From the NCBI RefSeq assembly GCF_003019035.1, contig NZ_CP027447.1: a stretch of DNA of 64,000 nt; one strand, written 5' to 3'. The position numbers and the translations under genes were made by a program. The notes under the pieces are model-generated. The model searched no databases and had not been told where the DNA came from. It worked only from the letters and a program-made list of their open reading frames with translations. How positions within the stretch are numbered: position 1 is the stretch's first letter; every line of letters starts with the position of its first letter. Shown piece by piece: positions 1 through 7,930 of the stretch. This stretch comes from Escherichia coli (lineage in GTDB: Bacteria; Pseudomonadota; Gammaproteobacteria; Enterobacterales; Enterobacteriaceae).

Positions 1-233
1 AAACGACTTCACAATTATTGTTTAAAATCTGGACTTTCATTTCATACACCTGCTTTAACATGAGTGCCTAGTGGCACAACATGATTCAACGAATCATCCT
101 GGACTTCATATGCCCCAGGCGGCTACTTCGTGGGCGTCCTGCCTGTTTGTTGTTTCTCTTGGGTACATTATGTATCTCAAAGGTACATTGTCAAGTATAA
201 AAAAACCTGCCGAAGCAGGTTCATAAACATTGA

Positions 234-908
234 TTAGGCTTTGATTTTGTATCTTCTTGGTTTTCCTGAGAAAATCACAGTTCCAATTATAGAGCAATTA
301 CCGTTGATCTTAATGTAAGGCTCAGGCCAGTTTGGGTTTAACGCTTTGAGATAACGCTGTGTCCCATCTTCTATCAACCTTTTGAAGGTGGTTTCACCTG
401 TATCGTGCATCAATGCAATAACGTCGTCACCGTGGCAGGCAGGTACTTCAGGATCGACAAAAATCATGTCTCCCGGGCGGTACTCATCAATCATTGAATC
501 ACCTATCACCCGCAAGATATAAGTCATTTCCCCACAGGGTACAGGGCAGGGGTACGTTTCTGCTGTGCTCAAATCAACCTCAGAATATCCAACTTCTTTC
601 CATGCTCCGGCCTGTACCCATGATATGACAGGGACTAATGTGATTTGTTTATTAGTGATTGAAACATCAGGTTTTTTTGTGATGTTCGTTGTCTGGTGTT
701 CTTGATCGAGCCATCCGACAGGCAGGTCGAAACATTTTTCGATGTGTCGTGCCATGCTGTCACCGATATTTTTAGTAGCACCATCTCCCATAAACCTGCT
801 GGTCTGGGTTGGCTCGCGATCAATCATAGTGGCAAAGGAAGAATTCCCGCCAACACCATCTCTCAGTTTTCTGGCGTTAGACCGCCGGATGTCATGGATT
901 GTTTTCAT
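234..908 (-). CDS. CI-like phage repressor (LexA/S24 peptidase family)
   Basis: 224 aa; C-terminal S24 signature (GDSM serine motif, FKRL lysine motif); divergent from a Cro-like gene. Confidence 0.85.
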   Translation of the reverse strand: MKTIHDIRRSNARKLRDGVGGNSSFATMIDREPTQTSRFMGDGATKNIGDSMARHIEKCFDLPVGWLDQEHQTTNITKKPDVSITNKQITLVPVISWVQAGAWKEVGYSEVDLSTAETYPCPVPCGEMTYILRVIGDSMIDEYRPGDMIFVDPEVPACHGDDVIALMHDTGETTFKRLIEDGTQRYLKALNPNWPEPYIKINGNCSIIGTVIFSGKPRRYKIKA

Positions 909-998
909 AACGAAATTAAAACCCTTGTACCGTTAAGGTACAAGTATCTTGAAGGTTCATTTCAATCATGTAATATGTACACCGGAGGTACATATTGT
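909..998. promoter_or_regulatory. Divergent cI/cro operator-promoter region with palindromic operators
   Basis: Inverted repeats CTTGTACC-n5-GGTACAAG (~925-945) and ATGTAC-n7-GTACAT (~973-991) between divergent repressor and Cro-like genes; SD GGAGGT before the ATG at 999. Confidence 0.5.
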
Positions 999-1199
999 AT
1001 GAAAGCGTATTGGGACTCTTTAACCAAAGAACAGCAGGGCGAGTTGGCCGGAAAAGTTGGCTCAACACCTGGCTACTTACGGCTGGTTTTCAATGGCTAT
1101 AAAAAAGCCAGTTTTGTGCTGGCTAAAAAACTTGAGCAATACACATCAGGTGCAATTACGAAATCTGACTTAAGACCGGATATCTATCCGAAAGATTAG
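999..1199 (+). CDS. Cro-like small HTH regulator
   Basis: 66 aa from ATG 999 with an SD; position divergent from the repressor; the longer 696..1199 frame overlaps the repressor and is rejected. Confidence 0.6.
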   Translation: MKAYWDSLTKEQQGELAGKVGSTPGYLRLVFNGYKKASFVLAKKLEQYTSGAITKSDLRPDIYPKD

Positions 1200-1230
1200 C
1201 AGAACACTTTCAATTTTTAACCACAGAACG

Positions 1231-1794
1231 ATGAGGCTAATCGTGGGTAAGCATCACTGGAAAATAGAAAAACAGCCTGAGTGGTACGTGAAAGCTGTCA
1301 GAAAAACTATCGCGGCGTTGCCGGGTGGTTACGCTGAAGCGGCTGACTGGCTCGATGTAACAGAAAACGCTTTATTCAACCGCCTTCGTGCAGATGGCGA
1401 TCAGATTTTCCCGCTGGGATGGGCAATGGTTTTACAGCGTGCTGGTGGCACTCACTTCATTGCTGATGCTGTGGCGCAGTCTGCAAATGGCGTCTTTGTG
1501 TCTCTTCCTGACGTCGAGGATGTAGACAACGCCGATATCAACCAACGCCTGCTGGAGGTCATTGAACAGATCGGCAGTTATTCAAAACAGATTCGTTCAG
1601 CAATTGAAGACGGTGTAGTGGAACCACATGAGAAGACAGCAATTAACGATGAGCTGTACCTCTCAATTTCGAAGCTGCAGGAGCATGCAGCACTGGTCTA
1701 CAAAATCTTTTGCGTTTCAGAAAGTAGTGACGCCCGCGAGTGTGCAGCTCCGGGCGCCGTGGCGTGTCGTGACTGTGGAGAAACTAACGCATGA
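1231..1794 (+). CDS. Early regulatory protein (YdaT/YmfL-like)
   Basis: 187 aa immediately after cro; size and position match e14 YmfL / Rac YdaT-type proteins (recalled, not aligned). Confidence 0.45.
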
Positions 1795-2138: not shown

Positions 2139-3080
2139 ATGAGCACTAAATTAACCGGCTATGTATGGGATGGTTGCGCTGCGTCAGGCATGAAGTTATC
2201 CAGCGTGGCAATTATGGCCCGCCTGGCTGATTTCAGTAATGACGAAGGTGTGTGCTGGCCATCAATTGAAACCATTGCCCGCCAGATTGGCGCGGGGATG
2301 AGCACCGTCAGAACGGCTATCGCACGGCTGGAAGCAGAAGGCTGGTTAACGCGTAAGGCGCGTCGCCAGGGTAACCGCAATGCGTCGAATGTTTATCAGC
2401 TTAACGTTGCGAAGCTTCAGGCAGCGGCATTTTCTCAACTGTCAGATTCTGACCCGTCAAAATCTGACGCATCAAAATCTGACCAGTCAAAATTTGATGC
2501 GTCGAAATCTGGCAAAAAAGCGGGTTTTCACCCGTCAGAATCTGGCGGGGATCCGTCAGTAAAATCAAAACATGATCCGTCAGATAAAAAACCTTCTCGT
2601 CCGGACGCTTCGCAACCGGACACGCAGACGGATGAACAGGATTTTTTAACTCGCCATCCTGATGCGGTTGTATTCAGCCCTAAAAAGCGCCAGTGGGGAA
2701 CGCAGGATGATTTGACCTGCGCACAGTGGCTCTGGAAAAAAATCATCGCCCTGTACGAGCAGGCCGCCGAGTGTGACGGCGAGGTGGTTCGTCCCAAAGA
2801 ACCTAACTGGACAGCCTGGGCAAACGAAATTCGCCTGATGTGTGTGCAGGATGGTCGTACTCACAAACAAATCTGCGAGATGTATAGCCGCGTCAGCCGC
2901 GATCCGTTCTGGTGCCGTAACGTGCTCAGCCCGTCGAAGCTGCGGGAAAAATGGGATGAGCTTTCCCTGCGCTTATCGCCGTCCGTCAGCACGTACACCG
3001 AAAAACGCGAAGACCCGTACTTCAAAGCCAGTTACGACAATGTGGACTACAGCCAGATCCCGGCAGGATTCAGGGGGTGA
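2139..3080 (+). CDS. Phage replication initiation protein (O-like, N-terminal winged-helix DNA-binding domain)
   Basis: 313 aa; an internal DNA repeat array (iterons) encodes an SKSD-rich linker; position after the cro-proximal genes. Confidence 0.65.
   Translation: MSTKLTGYVWDGCAASGMKLSSVAIMARLADFSNDEGVCWPSIETIARQIGAGMSTVRTAIARLEAEGWLTRKARRQGNRNASNVYQLNVAKLQAAAFSQLSDSDPSKSDASKSDQSKFDASKSGKKAGFHPSESGGDPSVKSKHDPSDKKPSRPDASQPDTQTDEQDFLTRHPDAVVFSPKKRQWGTQDDLTCAQWLWKKIIALYEQAAECDGEVVRPKEPNWTAWANEIRLMCVQDGRTHKQICEMYSRVSRDPFWCRNVLSPSKLREKWDELSLRLSPSVSTYTEKREDPYFKASYDNVDYSQIPAGFRG
2441..2590. repeat. Iteron array (putative phage replication origin) inside the replication gene
   Basis: At least 6 direct copies of a ~12-bp unit (c)GTCAAAATCTGA(c) and variants at ~14-15 bp periodicity. 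Confidence 0.7.
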
Positions 3081-3571
3081 TCATGAGTCTTTTGAATGAC
3101 GTTCAGAAATTCATTGAAGCCCATCCGGGGTGTACTTCCGGAGACATTGCGGATGCTTTTGCAGGTTACTCACGACAGCGCGTTCTGCAGTCAGCAAGCA
3201 AGTTACGTCAGAGTGGGCGTGTGGCTCACCGTTGTGAAGGGGATACACGCAGACATTTCCCGCGGCTGACTGAGATACCGCAGGAGCCGGAACCGCAACC
3301 AGTTCGTGAATCCAGACCTGTGCGCAATTTCTATGTCGGCACTAACGATCCCCGGGTGATTTTGTGCCTGACCCGCCAGGCGGAAGAACTGGAGTCCAGG
3401 GGCTTATACCGTCGTGCTGCAACGGTGTGGATGGCGGCATTCCGTGAAAGCCACTCCCAGCAAGAGCGAAACAATTTTCTTGCGCGTCGTGAGCGGTGTT
3501 TACGGAAAAGCAGCAAGCGCGCTGTATCGGGTGAAGAGTGGTATCTGTCAGGGAATTACGTGGGGGCTTAA
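3077..3571 (+). CDS. PerC-family-like transcriptional regulator (tentative)
   Basis: 164 aa; the YRRAATVWMAAF segment resembles the RRAAxxW core I recall from PerC/Pch proteins; not aligned. Confidence 0.35.
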   Translation: MIMSLLNDVQKFIEAHPGCTSGDIADAFAGYSRQRVLQSASKLRQSGRVAHRCEGDTRRHFPRLTEIPQEPEPQPVRESRPVRNFYVGTNDPRVILCLTRQAEELESRGLYRRAATVWMAAFRESHSQQERNNFLARRERCLRKSSKRAVSGEEWYLSGNYVGA

Positions 3572-3897
3572 TGACGACGTTAACTCAATGCCAGCAGCAG
3601 GTGCTGGATATGCTGATTTCTTATCAGAAAGAGCGTGGCTTTCCGCCAACCAATCAGGAGGTGGCAACCATGCTGGGATACCGTTCGGTGAATGCAGCGG
3701 TGGAGCATCTTCGCGCACTGGAGAAAAAAGGTGTCATCACGATAAAGCGTGGCGTGGCCCGGGGTATCACTCTTCATACCGCGGTGAAGGACGACGACAG
3801 CGAGGCGGTCGGGATTATCCGCTCACTGCTTGCCGGTGAGGAAAACGCAAGGCTGCGTGCAACCCACTGGTTACATGAGAGGGGCCTGAAAGTATGA
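3571..3897 (+). CDS. LexA-N-terminal-type winged-helix DNA-binding protein
   Basis: 108 aa from ATG 3571; pattern similar to the LexA DNA-binding domain without a peptidase domain. Confidence 0.5.
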   Translation: MTTLTQCQQQVLDMLISYQKERGFPPTNQEVATMLGYRSVNAAVEHLRALEKKGVITIKRGVARGITLHTAVKDDDSEAVGIIRSLLAGEENARLRATHWLHERGLKV

Positions 3898-4283
3898 AGC
3901 TGATCCTGCCTTTCCCGCCCAGCGTGAACACGTACTGGCGACACCCCAACAAAGGGGCGTTTGCTGGTAAGAGCCTGATAAGCGCGGCGGGGCGAAAATT
4001 CCAGAGCGCGGCGTGCGCAGCAATAGTTGAGCAGTTACGTCGTCTGCCAAAACCAACGTCGGCACCTGCTTCAGTGGAGATCGTGTTGTTTCCTCCGGAT
4101 AACCGGATCCGCGATCTGGACAACTATAACAAGGCGCTGTTTGACGCCCTGACCCACGCGGGTGTGTGGGAAGACGACAGTCAGGTGAAAAGAATGCTGG
4201 TGGAGTGGGGACCGGTTATCCCGGAAGGGAAGGTCGAGATCACTATCAGTAAGTACGAGAAACCGGCGGGTGCAGCCGCCTGA
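3894..4283 (+). CDS. rusA: Holliday junction resolvase RusA
   Basis: 129 aa; N-terminal PPSVNTYW and central RDLDNYNKALFDAL motifs characteristic of RusA. Confidence 0.85.
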   Translation: MKLILPFPPSVNTYWRHPNKGAFAGKSLISAAGRKFQSAACAAIVEQLRRLPKPTSAPASVEIVLFPPDNRIRDLDNYNKALFDALTHAGVWEDDSQVKRMLVEWGPVIPEGKVEITISKYEKPAGAAA

Positions 4284-5101: not shown

Positions 5102-6097
5102 GTGACCGTGAGAGCACTACTGACCCCTGAAATTGCCCCGCGTATGGGGATCGTATTGTTCAGACCAGGTTCAGAGCTGATGCCCCTGTTTATGCAGGGG
5201 CGTGTCCTGCTGGAGCCTGAGCCGGAACGTTATTCATCTTTCGCCAGTGGTGCCGTTCCGGCGGCATCACAACCGCTGGCGGATGATCCTGCCGTTCGGG
5301 CCGTGTTCCGCAATGAGGCAGTGATCCGTCGTGCTGGTGGCGTGGAATGTCTTGAAAGCTGGTTACTTCGTGAAAAAGGCTGCCAGTGGCCTCATTCCGA
5401 CTGGCACAGCGAGAACATGACCACAATGCGACACGCTCCGGGCGCAATCCGTCTGTGCTGGCACTGCGATAACCAGCTGCGCGATCAGTTCACGGAACGG
5501 CTGGAATCAATGGCAACGGATAACTGTGCCCGCTGGGTGTTGTCTGTTGTGCGTCGGGATCTTGGTTTTGATGACAGTCACGTTGTGACAATGCCGGAAC
5601 TGTGCTGGTGGCTGGTTCGTAATGATCTGGCGGATGCCTTACCGGAAAGCGCAGCCCGTAAGGCACTGAGATTACCGAAGCCTGTTGTGCAGGCGGTCAC
5701 CCGGGAAAGTGACCTTGTACCTTCGGTTCCTGCCACCAGCATTATCCAGGATAAAGCGAAAAAGGTGCTGGCGCTGAAAGTGGATCCGGAGTCGCCGGAG
5801 TCTTTTATGTTACGCCCAAAACGCCGCCGCTGGGTTAATGAAAAGTACACGCGCTGGGTTAAGACACAGCCGTGTGCATGTTGTGGAAAGCCTGCTGATG
5901 ATCCCCACCACCTGATAGGTCACGGTCAGGGTGGAATGGGTACAAAAGCGCATGACCTCTTTGTGTTGCCTTTGTGCAGAAAGCATCACGACGAGCTGCA
6001 TGCGGATACCGTGGCATTTGAAGAGAAGTATGGCTCCCAGCTGGAGCTGATATTTCGTTTTATCGATCGTGCACTGGCAATTGGCGTGCTGGCCTGA
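5102..6097 (+). CDS. Phage protein, DUF968-like (zinc-binding C-terminus)
   Basis: 331 aa; C-terminal CxxC...HH cluster (CACCGKPADDPHHLIGHG ... CRKHHDELH) typical of the lambdoid DUF968 family. Confidence 0.5.
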   Translation: MTVRALLTPEIAPRMGIVLFRPGSELMPLFMQGRVLLEPEPERYSSFASGAVPAASQPLADDPAVRAVFRNEAVIRRAGGVECLESWLLREKGCQWPHSDWHSENMTTMRHAPGAIRLCWHCDNQLRDQFTERLESMATDNCARWVLSVVRRDLGFDDSHVVTMPELCWWLVRNDLADALPESAARKALRLPKPVVQAVTRESDLVPSVPATSIIQDKAKKVLALKVDPESPESFMLRPKRRRWVNEKYTRWVKTQPCACCGKPADDPHHLIGHGQGGMGTKAHDLFVLPLCRKHHDELHADTVAFEEKYGSQLELIFRFIDRALAIGVLA

Positions 6098-6114: not shown

Positions 6115-6456
6115 ATGCGTGATATGTATGAAGTATTGGACCGCTGGGGTGCATGGGCTGCAGCAGATAACAGTGGTGTGGACTGGCAGCCTGTTGCTGC
6201 AGGGTTTAAAGGTTTACTACCTCATGGAAAGAAAACACGCCAACAATGCGATGATGATGAAGGAATCATGATTGACAGCTGTGTTGCGCGATTGCGGAAA
6301 TATAAGCCCGAAGAGTATGAGTTGGTTATTGCTCATTTTGTTATCGGCATCTCACTAAGAACTATTGCAAAGAAGCAGAAGTGTTCTGATGGGACAATAA
6401 GAAAAGAGTTGCAAACAGCTCTTGGTTTTCTGGATGGTGTGCTTTCAATGTTGTAA
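6115..6456 (+). CDS. Late-gene antiterminator Q-like protein
   Basis: ~113 aa; last early gene before the late region; DRWGAW-containing N-terminus resembles small Q-type antiterminators (recalled). Confidence 0.5.
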   Translation: MRDMYEVLDRWGAWAAADNSGVDWQPVAAGFKGLLPHGKKTRQQCDDDEGIMIDSCVARLRKYKPEEYELVIAHFVIGISLRTIAKKQKCSDGTIRKELQTALGFLDGVLSML

Positions 6457-7017: not shown

Positions 7018-7930
7018 TTTTATTCGTCCCGTTCAGCATTTCTTCTTTTATCATATCAAAAACAGGGTTTGTTGTATAATTATCGTTTGTCAATCCATTG
7101 ACTTTATCGGCAATTATATCGAAATCGTATGTTTCAAAAAAAACAGGGCAGTTCATAAAATCAATGGTTTTTTCTATTCCTGCATGGTTTACTGCAATAA
7201 CCTGTGCTTTAGTAACTCCACTCATAGAATTATAAATATTTGAAAGATTCTGAGATAGTTGTTGCACTTTTGTTCTGTCGCTAGAATTAAAATTCATATC
7301 TATTGTGGTGGTGTTAACAAATTGTTCAAGCGCAGTCATTGGTCCACCTTTAAAATCTATATAATTAAATTTAAAGCTTGTGCTTTTAATCTCTTTGAAT
7401 TGACATAAAACACTCTGAATGTTGTTTTTATTTGTCATAAGGCTGAAAGTCAGTCTTTCTTTGTATTTTTTATTTATTGCAGTTACTTCTTTTTGTTTTG
7501 GTTTATCACCAAGTTTTTTTATTTCTTCTTTATTTTGATTTCTGATAAATTCATTACTTATTGTTTCTAAATGAGAAAAGAGAGTGTTCAGACTGCATGA
7601 ACCGTGGTGATACATATAGAGACCAGAAAGATTAGATTTTTTAATTAAGAAAAAGTTGAAATTAGCAAGTTTGTCACTTCCTTGAAGATCTTCAATTTTA
7701 AGCTGGAATTTACCATCAACAAATTGCGACTTACAGTTCTTTTTTTGGTTTCTGAATGTGACAACTAATCCATAATAGAAATCATTCACATCCGAAATGA
7801 GAATTTTACGAGTATAGTCTGTGCGACTGTGTTCTCTGTTTGATGCGTTGATAAAAGCATTCATTACGTCAACGGTATTAATATTTTTGTTATTGTTATT
7901 TATTGTAAATCCTATGCTTCTAACTTTCAT
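7004..7930 (-). CDS. Hypothetical protein, upstream gene of a two-gene moron (candidate sensor/effector partner)
   Basis: 308 aa, Asn/Lys-rich and AT-rich coding sequence; its stop overlaps the start of the downstream membrane-protein gene by 14 nt; no recognisable catalytic motif. Confidence 0.55.
   Translation of the reverse strand: MKVRSIGFTINNNNKNINTVDVMNAFINASNREHSRTDYTRKILISDVNDFYYGLVVTFRNQKKNCKSQFVDGKFQLKIEDLQGSDKLANFNFFLIKKSNLSGLYMYHHGSCSLNTLFSHLETISNEFIRNQNKEEIKKLGDKPKQKEVTAINKKYKERLTFSLMTNKNNIQSVLCQFKEIKSTSFKFNYIDFKGGPMTALEQFVNTTTIDMNFNSSDRTKVQQLSQNLSNIYNSMSGVTKAQVIAVNHAGIEKTIDFMNCPVFFETYDFDIIADKVNGLTNDNYTTNPVFDMIKEEMLNGTNKNAFI

Follow-up and report, generated by a model that had tools for sequence, protein, structure and literature searches.

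In phage lambda the operators of the lysis/lysogeny switch are partly symmetric sites of 17 bp that lie between the divergent cI and cro genes and overlap the PR and PRM promoters, and a second operator cluster is found on PL beyond cI. One of the sites, OR2, is centred near -42/-43 of PRM, the position from which this promoter is activated, and the lambda half-site is TATCAC, unrelated to the TGTACC of the sites described below. The lambda repressor combines a helix-turn-helix (HTH) with an S24 domain carrying a VQAG cleavage motif. For the Stx2 phage 933W, Tyler, Mills and Friedman reportedly described three OR and two OL sites in 2004, the same numbers as found here, and the repressor and operator sequences of 933W are said to differ from those here.

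Gel shift and DNase I footprinting experiments have mapped the switch of prophage CP-933P from E. coli O157:H7 (PaaR2/YdaS/YdaT), and the footprints of repressor and Cro overlap on palindromes covering PRM and PR (PMC8630535). These palindromes are 18 bp long with the consensus GTTTAGTAA, four of them being intergenic and three located at OL. A toxin-antitoxin pair follows PaaR2, and the cII equivalent is YdaT, compared with a protein of the Phage_CP76 type at the locus analyzed here.

Two further systems provide background. Among proteins of solved structure, the one nearest to the N-terminal DNA-binding domain of our repressor is Rep from a Salmonella temperate phage (PDB 5d50). Rep is inactivated by an antirepressor as a tetramer (PMC9638917). 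In E. coli K-12, the repressor of prophage e14 has been described as SOS-sensitive (PMC8249747), and its gene ymfK is one of five leaderless mRNAs identified by differential RNA-seq, with a leader length of 0 (PMC4681348, Table S3). The lambda cI mRNA is leaderless as well (PMC4681348).

Here we analyze an immunity region in a window of 64,000 nucleotides of E. coli DNA (contig NZ_CP027447.1 of assembly GCF_003019035.1), within which no tRNA genes were found. The locus resembles lambda in each of the respects given above, from the 17-bp sites on both divergent promoters, one of them centred close to -43 of PRM, to the second cluster on PL and the domain structure of the repressor. It is unlike lambda in having two OL sites and not three, in having two neighbouring sites (A and C) that abut at 17 bp centre to centre compared with 23-24 bp in lambda, and in having its best consensus match on PRM, where the lambda OR3 site is weak. 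It also has a Cro of the YdaS type and a terminator between cI and PL, and it has no rex genes. A Cro of the YdaS family lies opposite a cI-like repressor gene with a leaderless mRNA in CP-933P (PMC8630535) and here alike, and both loci have a further PL promoter with OL sites. We consider it highly probable, at roughly 0.9, that the five sites described below serve as operators in a lambda-style switch between lysis and lysogeny, located in the immunity region common to e14 and SfV.

Results and discussion

Features of the immunity region

The genes, promoters and candidate operators are listed here by position in the window, with the number of half-site positions matching the consensus given for each site.

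151..167, unstranded: OL2, TGTTTC tcttg GGTACA, 10/12
152..1218, unstranded: exchangeable immunity module (OL/PL, terminator, cI, OR, cro), by comparison with hetero-immune E. coli prophages
167..194, minus strand: PL, proposed leftward early promoter, -35 TTGACA (194-189), 16-nt spacer, -10 CATAAT (172-167)
171..187, unstranded: OL1, TGTATC tcaaa GGTACA, 11/12
203..222, minus strand: intrinsic terminator of the repressor transcript, located immediately ahead of PL and separating PL from the end of cI
234..908, minus strand: cI-type repressor gene (YmfK/CohE of e14; cI of SfV), 224 aa, N-terminal HTH and C-terminal S24
915..943, minus strand: PRM, repressor promoter, -35 TTGTAC (943-938), 17-nt spacer, -10 TTTAAT (920-915)
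926..942, unstranded: site A (OR3-like), TGTACC gttaa GGTACA, 12/12
943..959, unstranded: site C (OR2-like, probable, weak), AGTATC ttgaa GGTTCA, 9/12
949..976, plus strand: PR, proposed cro promoter, -35 TTGAAG (949-954), 16-nt spacer, -10 TAATAT (971-976)
976..992, unstranded: site B (OR1-like), TGTACA ccgga GGTACA, 11/12
999..1199, plus strand: Cro-like gene (YmfT/CroE), 66 aa, YdaS/HTH_3 type
1231..1794, 3' of cro: cII-like gene, Phage_CP76

The ranking of the sites by strength in this text describes their match to the consensus and not their affinity.

A single 17-bp site behind both palindromes

Positions 909-998 are the exact intergenic space from the ATG of the cI-like gene (908, minus strand) to the ATG of the cro-like gene (999, plus strand). 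A sequence-only reading of this DNA had reported two inverted repeats with GTAC-containing half-sites between a divergent repressor gene and a Cro-like gene, and both repeats are indeed present there. The first consists of CTTGTACC (924-931), the spacer gttaa and GGTACAAG (937-944), and the second of ATGTAC (975-980), seven nucleotides and GTACAT (988-993). The perfect arms of the second repeat amount to 9 bp (AATATGTAC/GTACATATT, 972-996), and with arms of 15 nt at 966-1002 the match is 87%. The palindromes had been described as two types, and this part of the description has to be changed: both contain one and the same 6-N5-6 site, TGTACC gttaa GGTACA at 926-942 (site A) and TGTACA ccgga GGTACA at 976-992 (site B). 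The operator consensus spans 17 bp and reads TGTAYC-N5-GRTACA, with the half-sites placed 11 bp, or about one helical turn, apart.

All copies of the half-site were then searched for, a check that the sequence-only reading had proposed. With at most one mismatch allowed, TGTACC-N5-GGTACA occurs three times in the 64-kb window compared with 0.04 expected from dinucleotide-preserving shuffles, and none of 100 such shuffles reached three matches. All three matches (A, B and OL1) fall within 822 bp around cI. The search brought out a cluster beyond cI, OL1 and OL2, that was absent from the earlier reading. Its view of the gap as an operator region is supported, and was incomplete in that both this cluster and a probable third OR site, site C, had been missed. 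The OL pair lies past the 3' end of cI, coincides with a strong proposed promoter that reads leftward, and is equivalent to OL/PL. The arrangement agrees with that expected of lambdoid operators, with several copies of one partly symmetric site between repressor and cro and a second cluster on the leftward early promoter. The distance is 17 bp from A to C, 33 bp from C to B and 20 bp from OL1 to OL2, and the OL and OR clusters are approximately 0.77 kb apart.

Other matches with two mismatches, at 527-543 (inside cI), 5157-5173, 6137-6153, 7598-7614 and 51666-51682, were not counted as sites because such matches are at chance level (16 found vs 6.5 ± 3.1).

Overlap of the sites with PRM and with the proposed PR and PL promoters

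When the mapped K-12 start of ymfK is moved to the window it falls at position 908, the A of the ATG, so that the PRM mRNA is leaderless. Counted from this start the -10 hexamer of PRM is at -12 to -7 and the -35 hexamer at -35 to -30. Site A then covers -18 to -34, site C covers -35 to -51 with its centre at -43, and the centre of site B is at -76. The leaderless start of ymfK therefore places the best site, A, on the repressor's own promoter.

The proposed PR promoter matches the sigma-70 consensus at 8 of 12 positions, which is below the threshold of the promoter scan. Its layout is kept in the related phages yong2 (TTGAAG/TAATAT) and EPP-1 (TTGCAG/CATAAT). Site A directly adjoins site C, and the proposed -35 hexamer of PR lies inside the spacer of site C. 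At the other end, the last T of the PR -10 hexamer is the first base of site B, which adjoins this hexamer, extends over the likely PR start near 983 and includes the Shine-Dalgarno sequence GGAGG (984-988) of cro. As in the lambdoid operators, the sites thus overlap the cores of both PRM and the lytic promoter, the latter being a predicted promoter. In the passages of the Reg-Seq preprint that name ymfT or e14, ymfT is included among the targets and no result for its promoter is given.

On the left side, PL is the strongest promoter-like match of the region (11/12), and a promoter is annotated at the equivalent place in the record of phage Ayreon. OL1 fills the spacer of PL, and OL2 covers the edge of its -10 hexamer and the likely start near 160. 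The terminator at 203-222 is annotated as a putative rho-independent terminator in the records of both SfV and Ayreon.

Repressor and Cro

The sequence-only reading had assigned the flanking genes to a repressor and a Cro-like protein, and this is what we find: a repressor with HTH and S24 domains and, divergent from it, a Cro of the YdaS/HTH_3 type. The S24 domain of the repressor is recognized by Pfam (PF00717, E = 1.5e-26), and the C-terminal domain matches the structures of lambda cI, UmuD and LexA. It contains the self-cleavage motifs VQA-G (Ala100-Gly101), Ser138 in GDSM and Lys176 in TFKRL, and these motifs fit RecA-dependent self-cleavage.

In the N-terminal 92 residues Pfam found no family, even at E = 10. 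This domain does match Rep (PDB 5d50; phmmer E = 5e-4, 36-38% identity), and its AlphaFold model, with a pLDDT of 85.5 and four helices, aligns with 5d50 in Foldseek at a TM of 0.77. The next Foldseek matches (E = 0.2 or weaker, TM 0.5-0.65) include the HTH folds of 434, P22, HigA and C-protein. In the model, a segment IDRExTQxSR, invariant among the relatives described below, runs from the end of helix 2 across the turn and through helix 3 of the HTH. The protein accordingly has the two parts of a lambdoid repressor, an HTH (from the model and Foldseek) and a LexA-like self-cleaving domain. Rep has a different C-terminal domain, in place of the S24 self-cleavage domain found here. The recognition helix also differs (SQNLVNRW in Rep vs TQTSRFMG here), and different operators are therefore expected for the two proteins. 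In the literature collection that was searched, we did not find binding, footprinting or reporter data for YmfK or YmfT.

Conservation of the sites among loci with the same repressor

A scan of viral contigs with an alignment of the DNA-binding domain gave 80 loci with 33 distinct OR alleles. The domain is 99-100% identical in all of them, so the scan yields allele statistics only and not deeper covariation. It is clear from the alleles that variation avoids the half-sites. Only 3 of the 36 half-site positions of A, C and B are variable, compared with 24 of the 54 other positions in the gap, and among the latter the central N5 spacers vary at 10 of 15. Fisher's test gives p = 3e-4 for half-sites against all other positions and p = 5e-5 for half-sites against spacers, values which are approximate because the alleles share ancestry.

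In site A the half-sites vary in one singleton and the spacer at three of its five positions. Site B has the only common half-site polymorphism of the set, C or T at position 980 (TGTACA/TGTATA), and its remaining 11 half-site positions are invariant. This is position 5 of the half-site, where T is also found in OL1 and in relatives. In the spacer of site B the three cro-side bases, which are part of GGAGG, are nearly fixed, and the other two vary freely. On the OL side, 70 of the 73 loci that carry the same repressor have unchanged OL1 half-sites, across at least 10 different spacers, and the spacing between OL1 and OL2 is 20 bp in all 73. The sequence-only reading had named absence of the palindromes from close relatives with the same repressor as one finding that would speak against it; they are present in every such relative.

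Conservation in distant relatives

Deeper relatives were collected by tblastn of the N-terminal 92 residues against GenBank phages. The N-terminal domains of the repressors from Hafnia phage yong2, Edwardsiella phage EPP-1, a Vibrio phage and Pseudomonas phages CF3a and LESphi3 are 55-72% identical to ours. Over the first 100 residues the identity to the window repressor is 42-74%, with IDRExTQxSR invariant. All five sites are found in yong2 and EPP-1, at the same positions and with the same spacings (17, 33 and 20 bp). CF3a and LESphi3 have three OR sites, TGTACCTCCTGGGTACA, TGTACCGTCAAGGTTCT and TGTACATTTCTGGTACA, and the Vibrio phage has two. Site A is kept at the same position in the Hafnia, Edwardsiella, Vibrio and Pseudomonas phages, and the position of site C matches the consensus at 9/12 in yong2 and EPP-1. 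The pooled matrix of 46 half-sites reads T37 G45 T41 A43 C38/T8 C40.

Operators change together with the repressor

Two hetero-immune E. coli prophages, L008 and L012, are homologous to the window up to position 151 and again from 1219 onward, and the segment in between is replaced by one with a different LexA-family repressor and Cro and with CTAAG/CTTAG repeats at the OR and OL positions. By this break in homology, 152-1218, with both operator clusters inside it, behaves as an exchangeable immunity module. The cI of phage H-19B, which is 40% identical and has the recognition helix SPSQLTQVSG, is accompanied by TTTATCA-type repeats instead. The operators are thus exchanged with the repressor and altered with its recognition helix, as is typical of lambdoid operators. 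The conservation of the half-sites, the joint swap in the mosaic prophages and the different repeats of H-19B collectively support the earlier proposal that the repeats define immunity specificity.

A model for the switch

We take both palindromes to be, almost certainly, binding sites of the cI-type repressor of the prophage, an assignment made from sequence comparison. In the proposed mechanism YmfK dimers would bind the 17-bp sites by their N-terminal HTH. Judged from position, site B would cover the -10/start of PR and site C its -35, PR being a promoter expected to drive cro, the cII-like gene and the replication genes, and repressor bound to B, C, OL1 and OL2 would shut off PR and PL. 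Site A on PRM would mediate negative autoregulation, and site C at -43 may stimulate PRM in the manner of lambda OR2. The repression would presumably be released when the S24 domain, stimulated by RecA, cleaves the repressor at Ala100-Gly101, as its motifs suggest. Cro (YmfT) probably binds the same sites, by analogy with lambda Cro and the YdaS protein of CP-933P.

The best-surviving alternative concerns site C, which we regard as a probable operator from its sequence. It is possible, although we consider it the less likely outcome, that only two right-hand sites exist, A and B, together with OL1 and OL2, and that 943-959 is conserved for its promoter elements and holds no OR2-like site. Site C matches the consensus at only 9 of 12 positions, and the proposed PR -35 TTGAAG in its spacer could explain part of the conservation. 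The abutment with site A, at 17 bp centre to centre, would moreover turn the two dimers toward different sides of the helix, unlike in lambda, a geometry that is unusual for cooperative dimers. Against this, the half-sites of C lie mostly outside the -35 hexamer and are nearly invariant among the 33 alleles (1 of 12 positions, a singleton), compared with 7 of 16 variable positions in the interval between C and B. The Pseudomonas phages have at the same relative position a 10/12 site with one perfect TGTACC half. Measured from the mapped start of PRM, the centre of site C at -43 is, in addition, the activating position of lambda OR2.

More doubtful is the idea that the switch is something other than a plain copy of lambda, with dominant negative autoregulation, a different mode of cooperativity and one operator code, possibly with cross-immunity, across genera. 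The symmetric best site on PRM, the abutting weak site and the OL cluster of two sites could together mean that negative autoregulation dominates and that cooperativity differs. Likewise, phages of Escherichia/Shigella, Hafnia, Edwardsiella, Vibrio and Pseudomonas have an identical TGTACC half-site and an invariant TQxSR helix, and this could define a single code. Our assessment is that the feature is the known and already annotated e14/SfV operator region, an ordinary lambdoid switch with no new principle.

It is very unlikely that the sites serve a regulator other than the cI-type repressor, be it host LexA, the cII-like YmfL or Cro alone. Cro homologues accompany the repressor and its sites in all of the diverged relatives, which makes Cro a plausible binder too, and e14 has been described as SOS-sensitive (PMC8249747). 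However, the LexA box CTGT-N8-ACAG was not found when the sequences 909-998 and 140-200 were read, and it is absent from the sites themselves, which are swapped with the phage module and not kept with the host. As for YmfL, activators of the cII type use direct repeats, as lambda cII does. Cro identity among the relatives falls to 32% (21/66) while the half-site is conserved alongside the invariant TQxSR helix of the repressor. The location of sites on the mapped promoter of the repressor and on PL also fits the cI-type repressor.

Even less probable is a role of the palindromes as RNA or DNA hairpins, for example with site A acting as a terminator or attenuator before cI for leftward transcripts. 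The minus strand at 944-924 was listed as terminator-like by the scan, having an 8-bp stem followed by GGTTTTAATT. Site A is, however, outside the main transcripts, as cI starts downstream of it at 908 and PR starts to its right, and the apparent U-tract is the -10 hexamer of PRM (TTTAAT). Where relatives differ, as in yong2 (GGTACT) and the Vibrio phage (TGTACG), the changes do not compensate one another, and a hairpin would not need one sequence common to five sites, two of which, C and OL2, lack the symmetry needed for folding. Site A was for these reasons rejected as a rho-independent terminator: it is outside the mapped transcript, its T-run is the PRM -10, and its stem pairs are lost in relatives.

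A chance origin of the palindromes in an AT-rich intergenic region has a negligible probability: any inverted repeat with arms of at least 8 bp appears in 1.6%, and two separate repeats with arms of at least 6 bp in 1.2%, of 20,000 mononucleotide shuffles of the 90-bp region, but the enrichment of the 17-mer (3 vs 0.04 expected), the conservation of the sites across five host genera and their change with the repressor effectively exclude it.

Identity with e14 and SfV, and distribution

The sequence-only reading had suggested a comparison with the operators of e14, and the intergenic region proves to be identical to that of K-12 e14, the only difference within 895-1010 being in the last aligned column, 1010, inside cro. 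Over 88-1300 the window is 99% identical to the ymfK-ymfT-ymfL region of e14, and over 1-1300 its identity to the cI-cro region of Shigella phage SfV is 98.1%. In the SfV record U82619.2 positions 26377-26445 are annotated as "putative operator region", corresponding to 925-993 of the window, precisely the two palindromes. The repressor is 100% identical to cI of SfIV, and SfV, SfIV, Ayreon, 2H10 and the Stx2c phages have DNA-binding domains that are 98.9-100% identical to its own. With the same DNA-binding domain and the same half-sites, the locus belongs to the e14/SfV immunity group.

To the annotated region our analysis adds minor points: one 17-bp consensus for the sites, the OL pair, a third OR site that is probable, and the finding that the best site falls on the leaderless PRM whose start is mapped. 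It also shows that this half-site is conserved across phages from several genera. The region is found at a coverage of at least 80% in 1315 of 5426 complete E. coli genomes, approximately a quarter, and is also carried by serotype-converting Shigella phages and by Stx2c- and Cdt-converting phages. A map of the five operator sites would tell which of these prophages are co-immune and show where SOS induction frees division-inhibitor and toxin genes, and it would guide the building of reporters or repressor-resistant mutants.

Between the window and its counterparts in e14 and SfV there is no difference of substance. The e14 element is a defective remnant, and the prophage in the window has an SfV-like structural module, the rest of it being SfV-like and 96-97% identical to SfV and vB_EcoM-689R6. 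SfV and many of the alleles have TGTATA in place of TGTACA in site B, together with different central spacers.

A probable second operator cluster and the immunity cassette

The operators of the cI-type repressor had been placed between cI and cro by the sequence-only reading, which lacked a second cluster of sites that we found at 151-194, directly beyond the cI terminator, together with a leftward promoter:

151-167 and 171-187, two 17-bp operator-type sites, 20 bp apart, of the same type as the cI-cro sites
within 151-194, leftward promoter under these sites, near-consensus, TTGACA-16-CATAAT

The 151-194 cluster is the predicted equivalent of OL/PL. The hetero-immune E. coli prophages L008 and L012 match the window at 95-98% identity as far as 151 and again from 1219 onwards. 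Between these two points they carry another repressor/Cro pair and repeats of the CTAAG/CTTAG type. On this comparison, we regard 152-1218 as an exchangeable immunity cassette with sharp borders. The left half of the window (1-31000, as against 31000-64000) is an SfV-like myovirus prophage that is 96-97% identical to SfV and vB_EcoM-689R6 across the early, head, and tail genes. A search for tRNA genes in the whole 64-kb window found none.

A further match to the operator consensus was seen within the cI coding sequence at 527-543 (TTTCCC-cacag-GGTACA, 10/12), and its counterparts in SfV and Ayreon, two phages with a near-identical repressor DNA-binding domain, score 10/12 and 9/12, respectively. 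It has two mismatches, and the number of such matches is within the chance expectation; it is probably not an operator site. The promoter/terminator scan also reported site A, one of the cI-cro operators, as a terminator-like hairpin (924-944, minus strand), a spurious call that arises because the operator palindrome adjoins the T-rich -10 region of the repressor promoter PRM.

Symmetry and the ribosome-binding site at site B

The symmetry of site B, the cro-proximal operator, reaches far past the 17-mer: its perfect arms measure 9 bp, and arms of 15 nt still match at 87% (966-1002). The extended symmetry covers the proposed -10 region of the cro promoter PR on one flank and the cro start-codon region on the other. 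It is kept in part in the Hafnia phage yong2 and the Edwardsiella phage EPP-1, and may reflect either recognition by Cro or coincidence. Site B also contains a translation signal:

984-988, cro Shine-Dalgarno sequence GGAGG, within site B, in its central spacer and at its inner edge

GGAGG has this position in every lineage that was compared, Pseudomonas and Vibrio phages among them, and the ribosome-binding site and the operator half-site therefore have bases in common.

The annotated start codons seem to be wrong in three relatives. The cro-like CDS of Vibrio phage Va_PF430-3_p42 (1219-1494 of its stretch, L005) and the annotated repressor CDS of EPP-1 (1435-2169 of L004) extend across operator sites, and the yong2 repressor CDS (1618-2175 of L003) is annotated from a start that lies 39 codons downstream of the ATG indicated by homology. 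The starts that homology indicates fit a short cro and a leaderless repressor gene.

A LexA-domain protein

One phage gene encodes a LexA-type DNA-binding domain:

3571-3897, plus strand, 108-aa phage protein with the LexA DNA-binding domain alone (PF01726, E = 2.9e-19)

The protein is without the S24 cleavage domain, and its gene is flanked by a PerC-like gene (3077-3571) and rusA (3894-4283). The protein could act as a non-cleavable LexA mimic.
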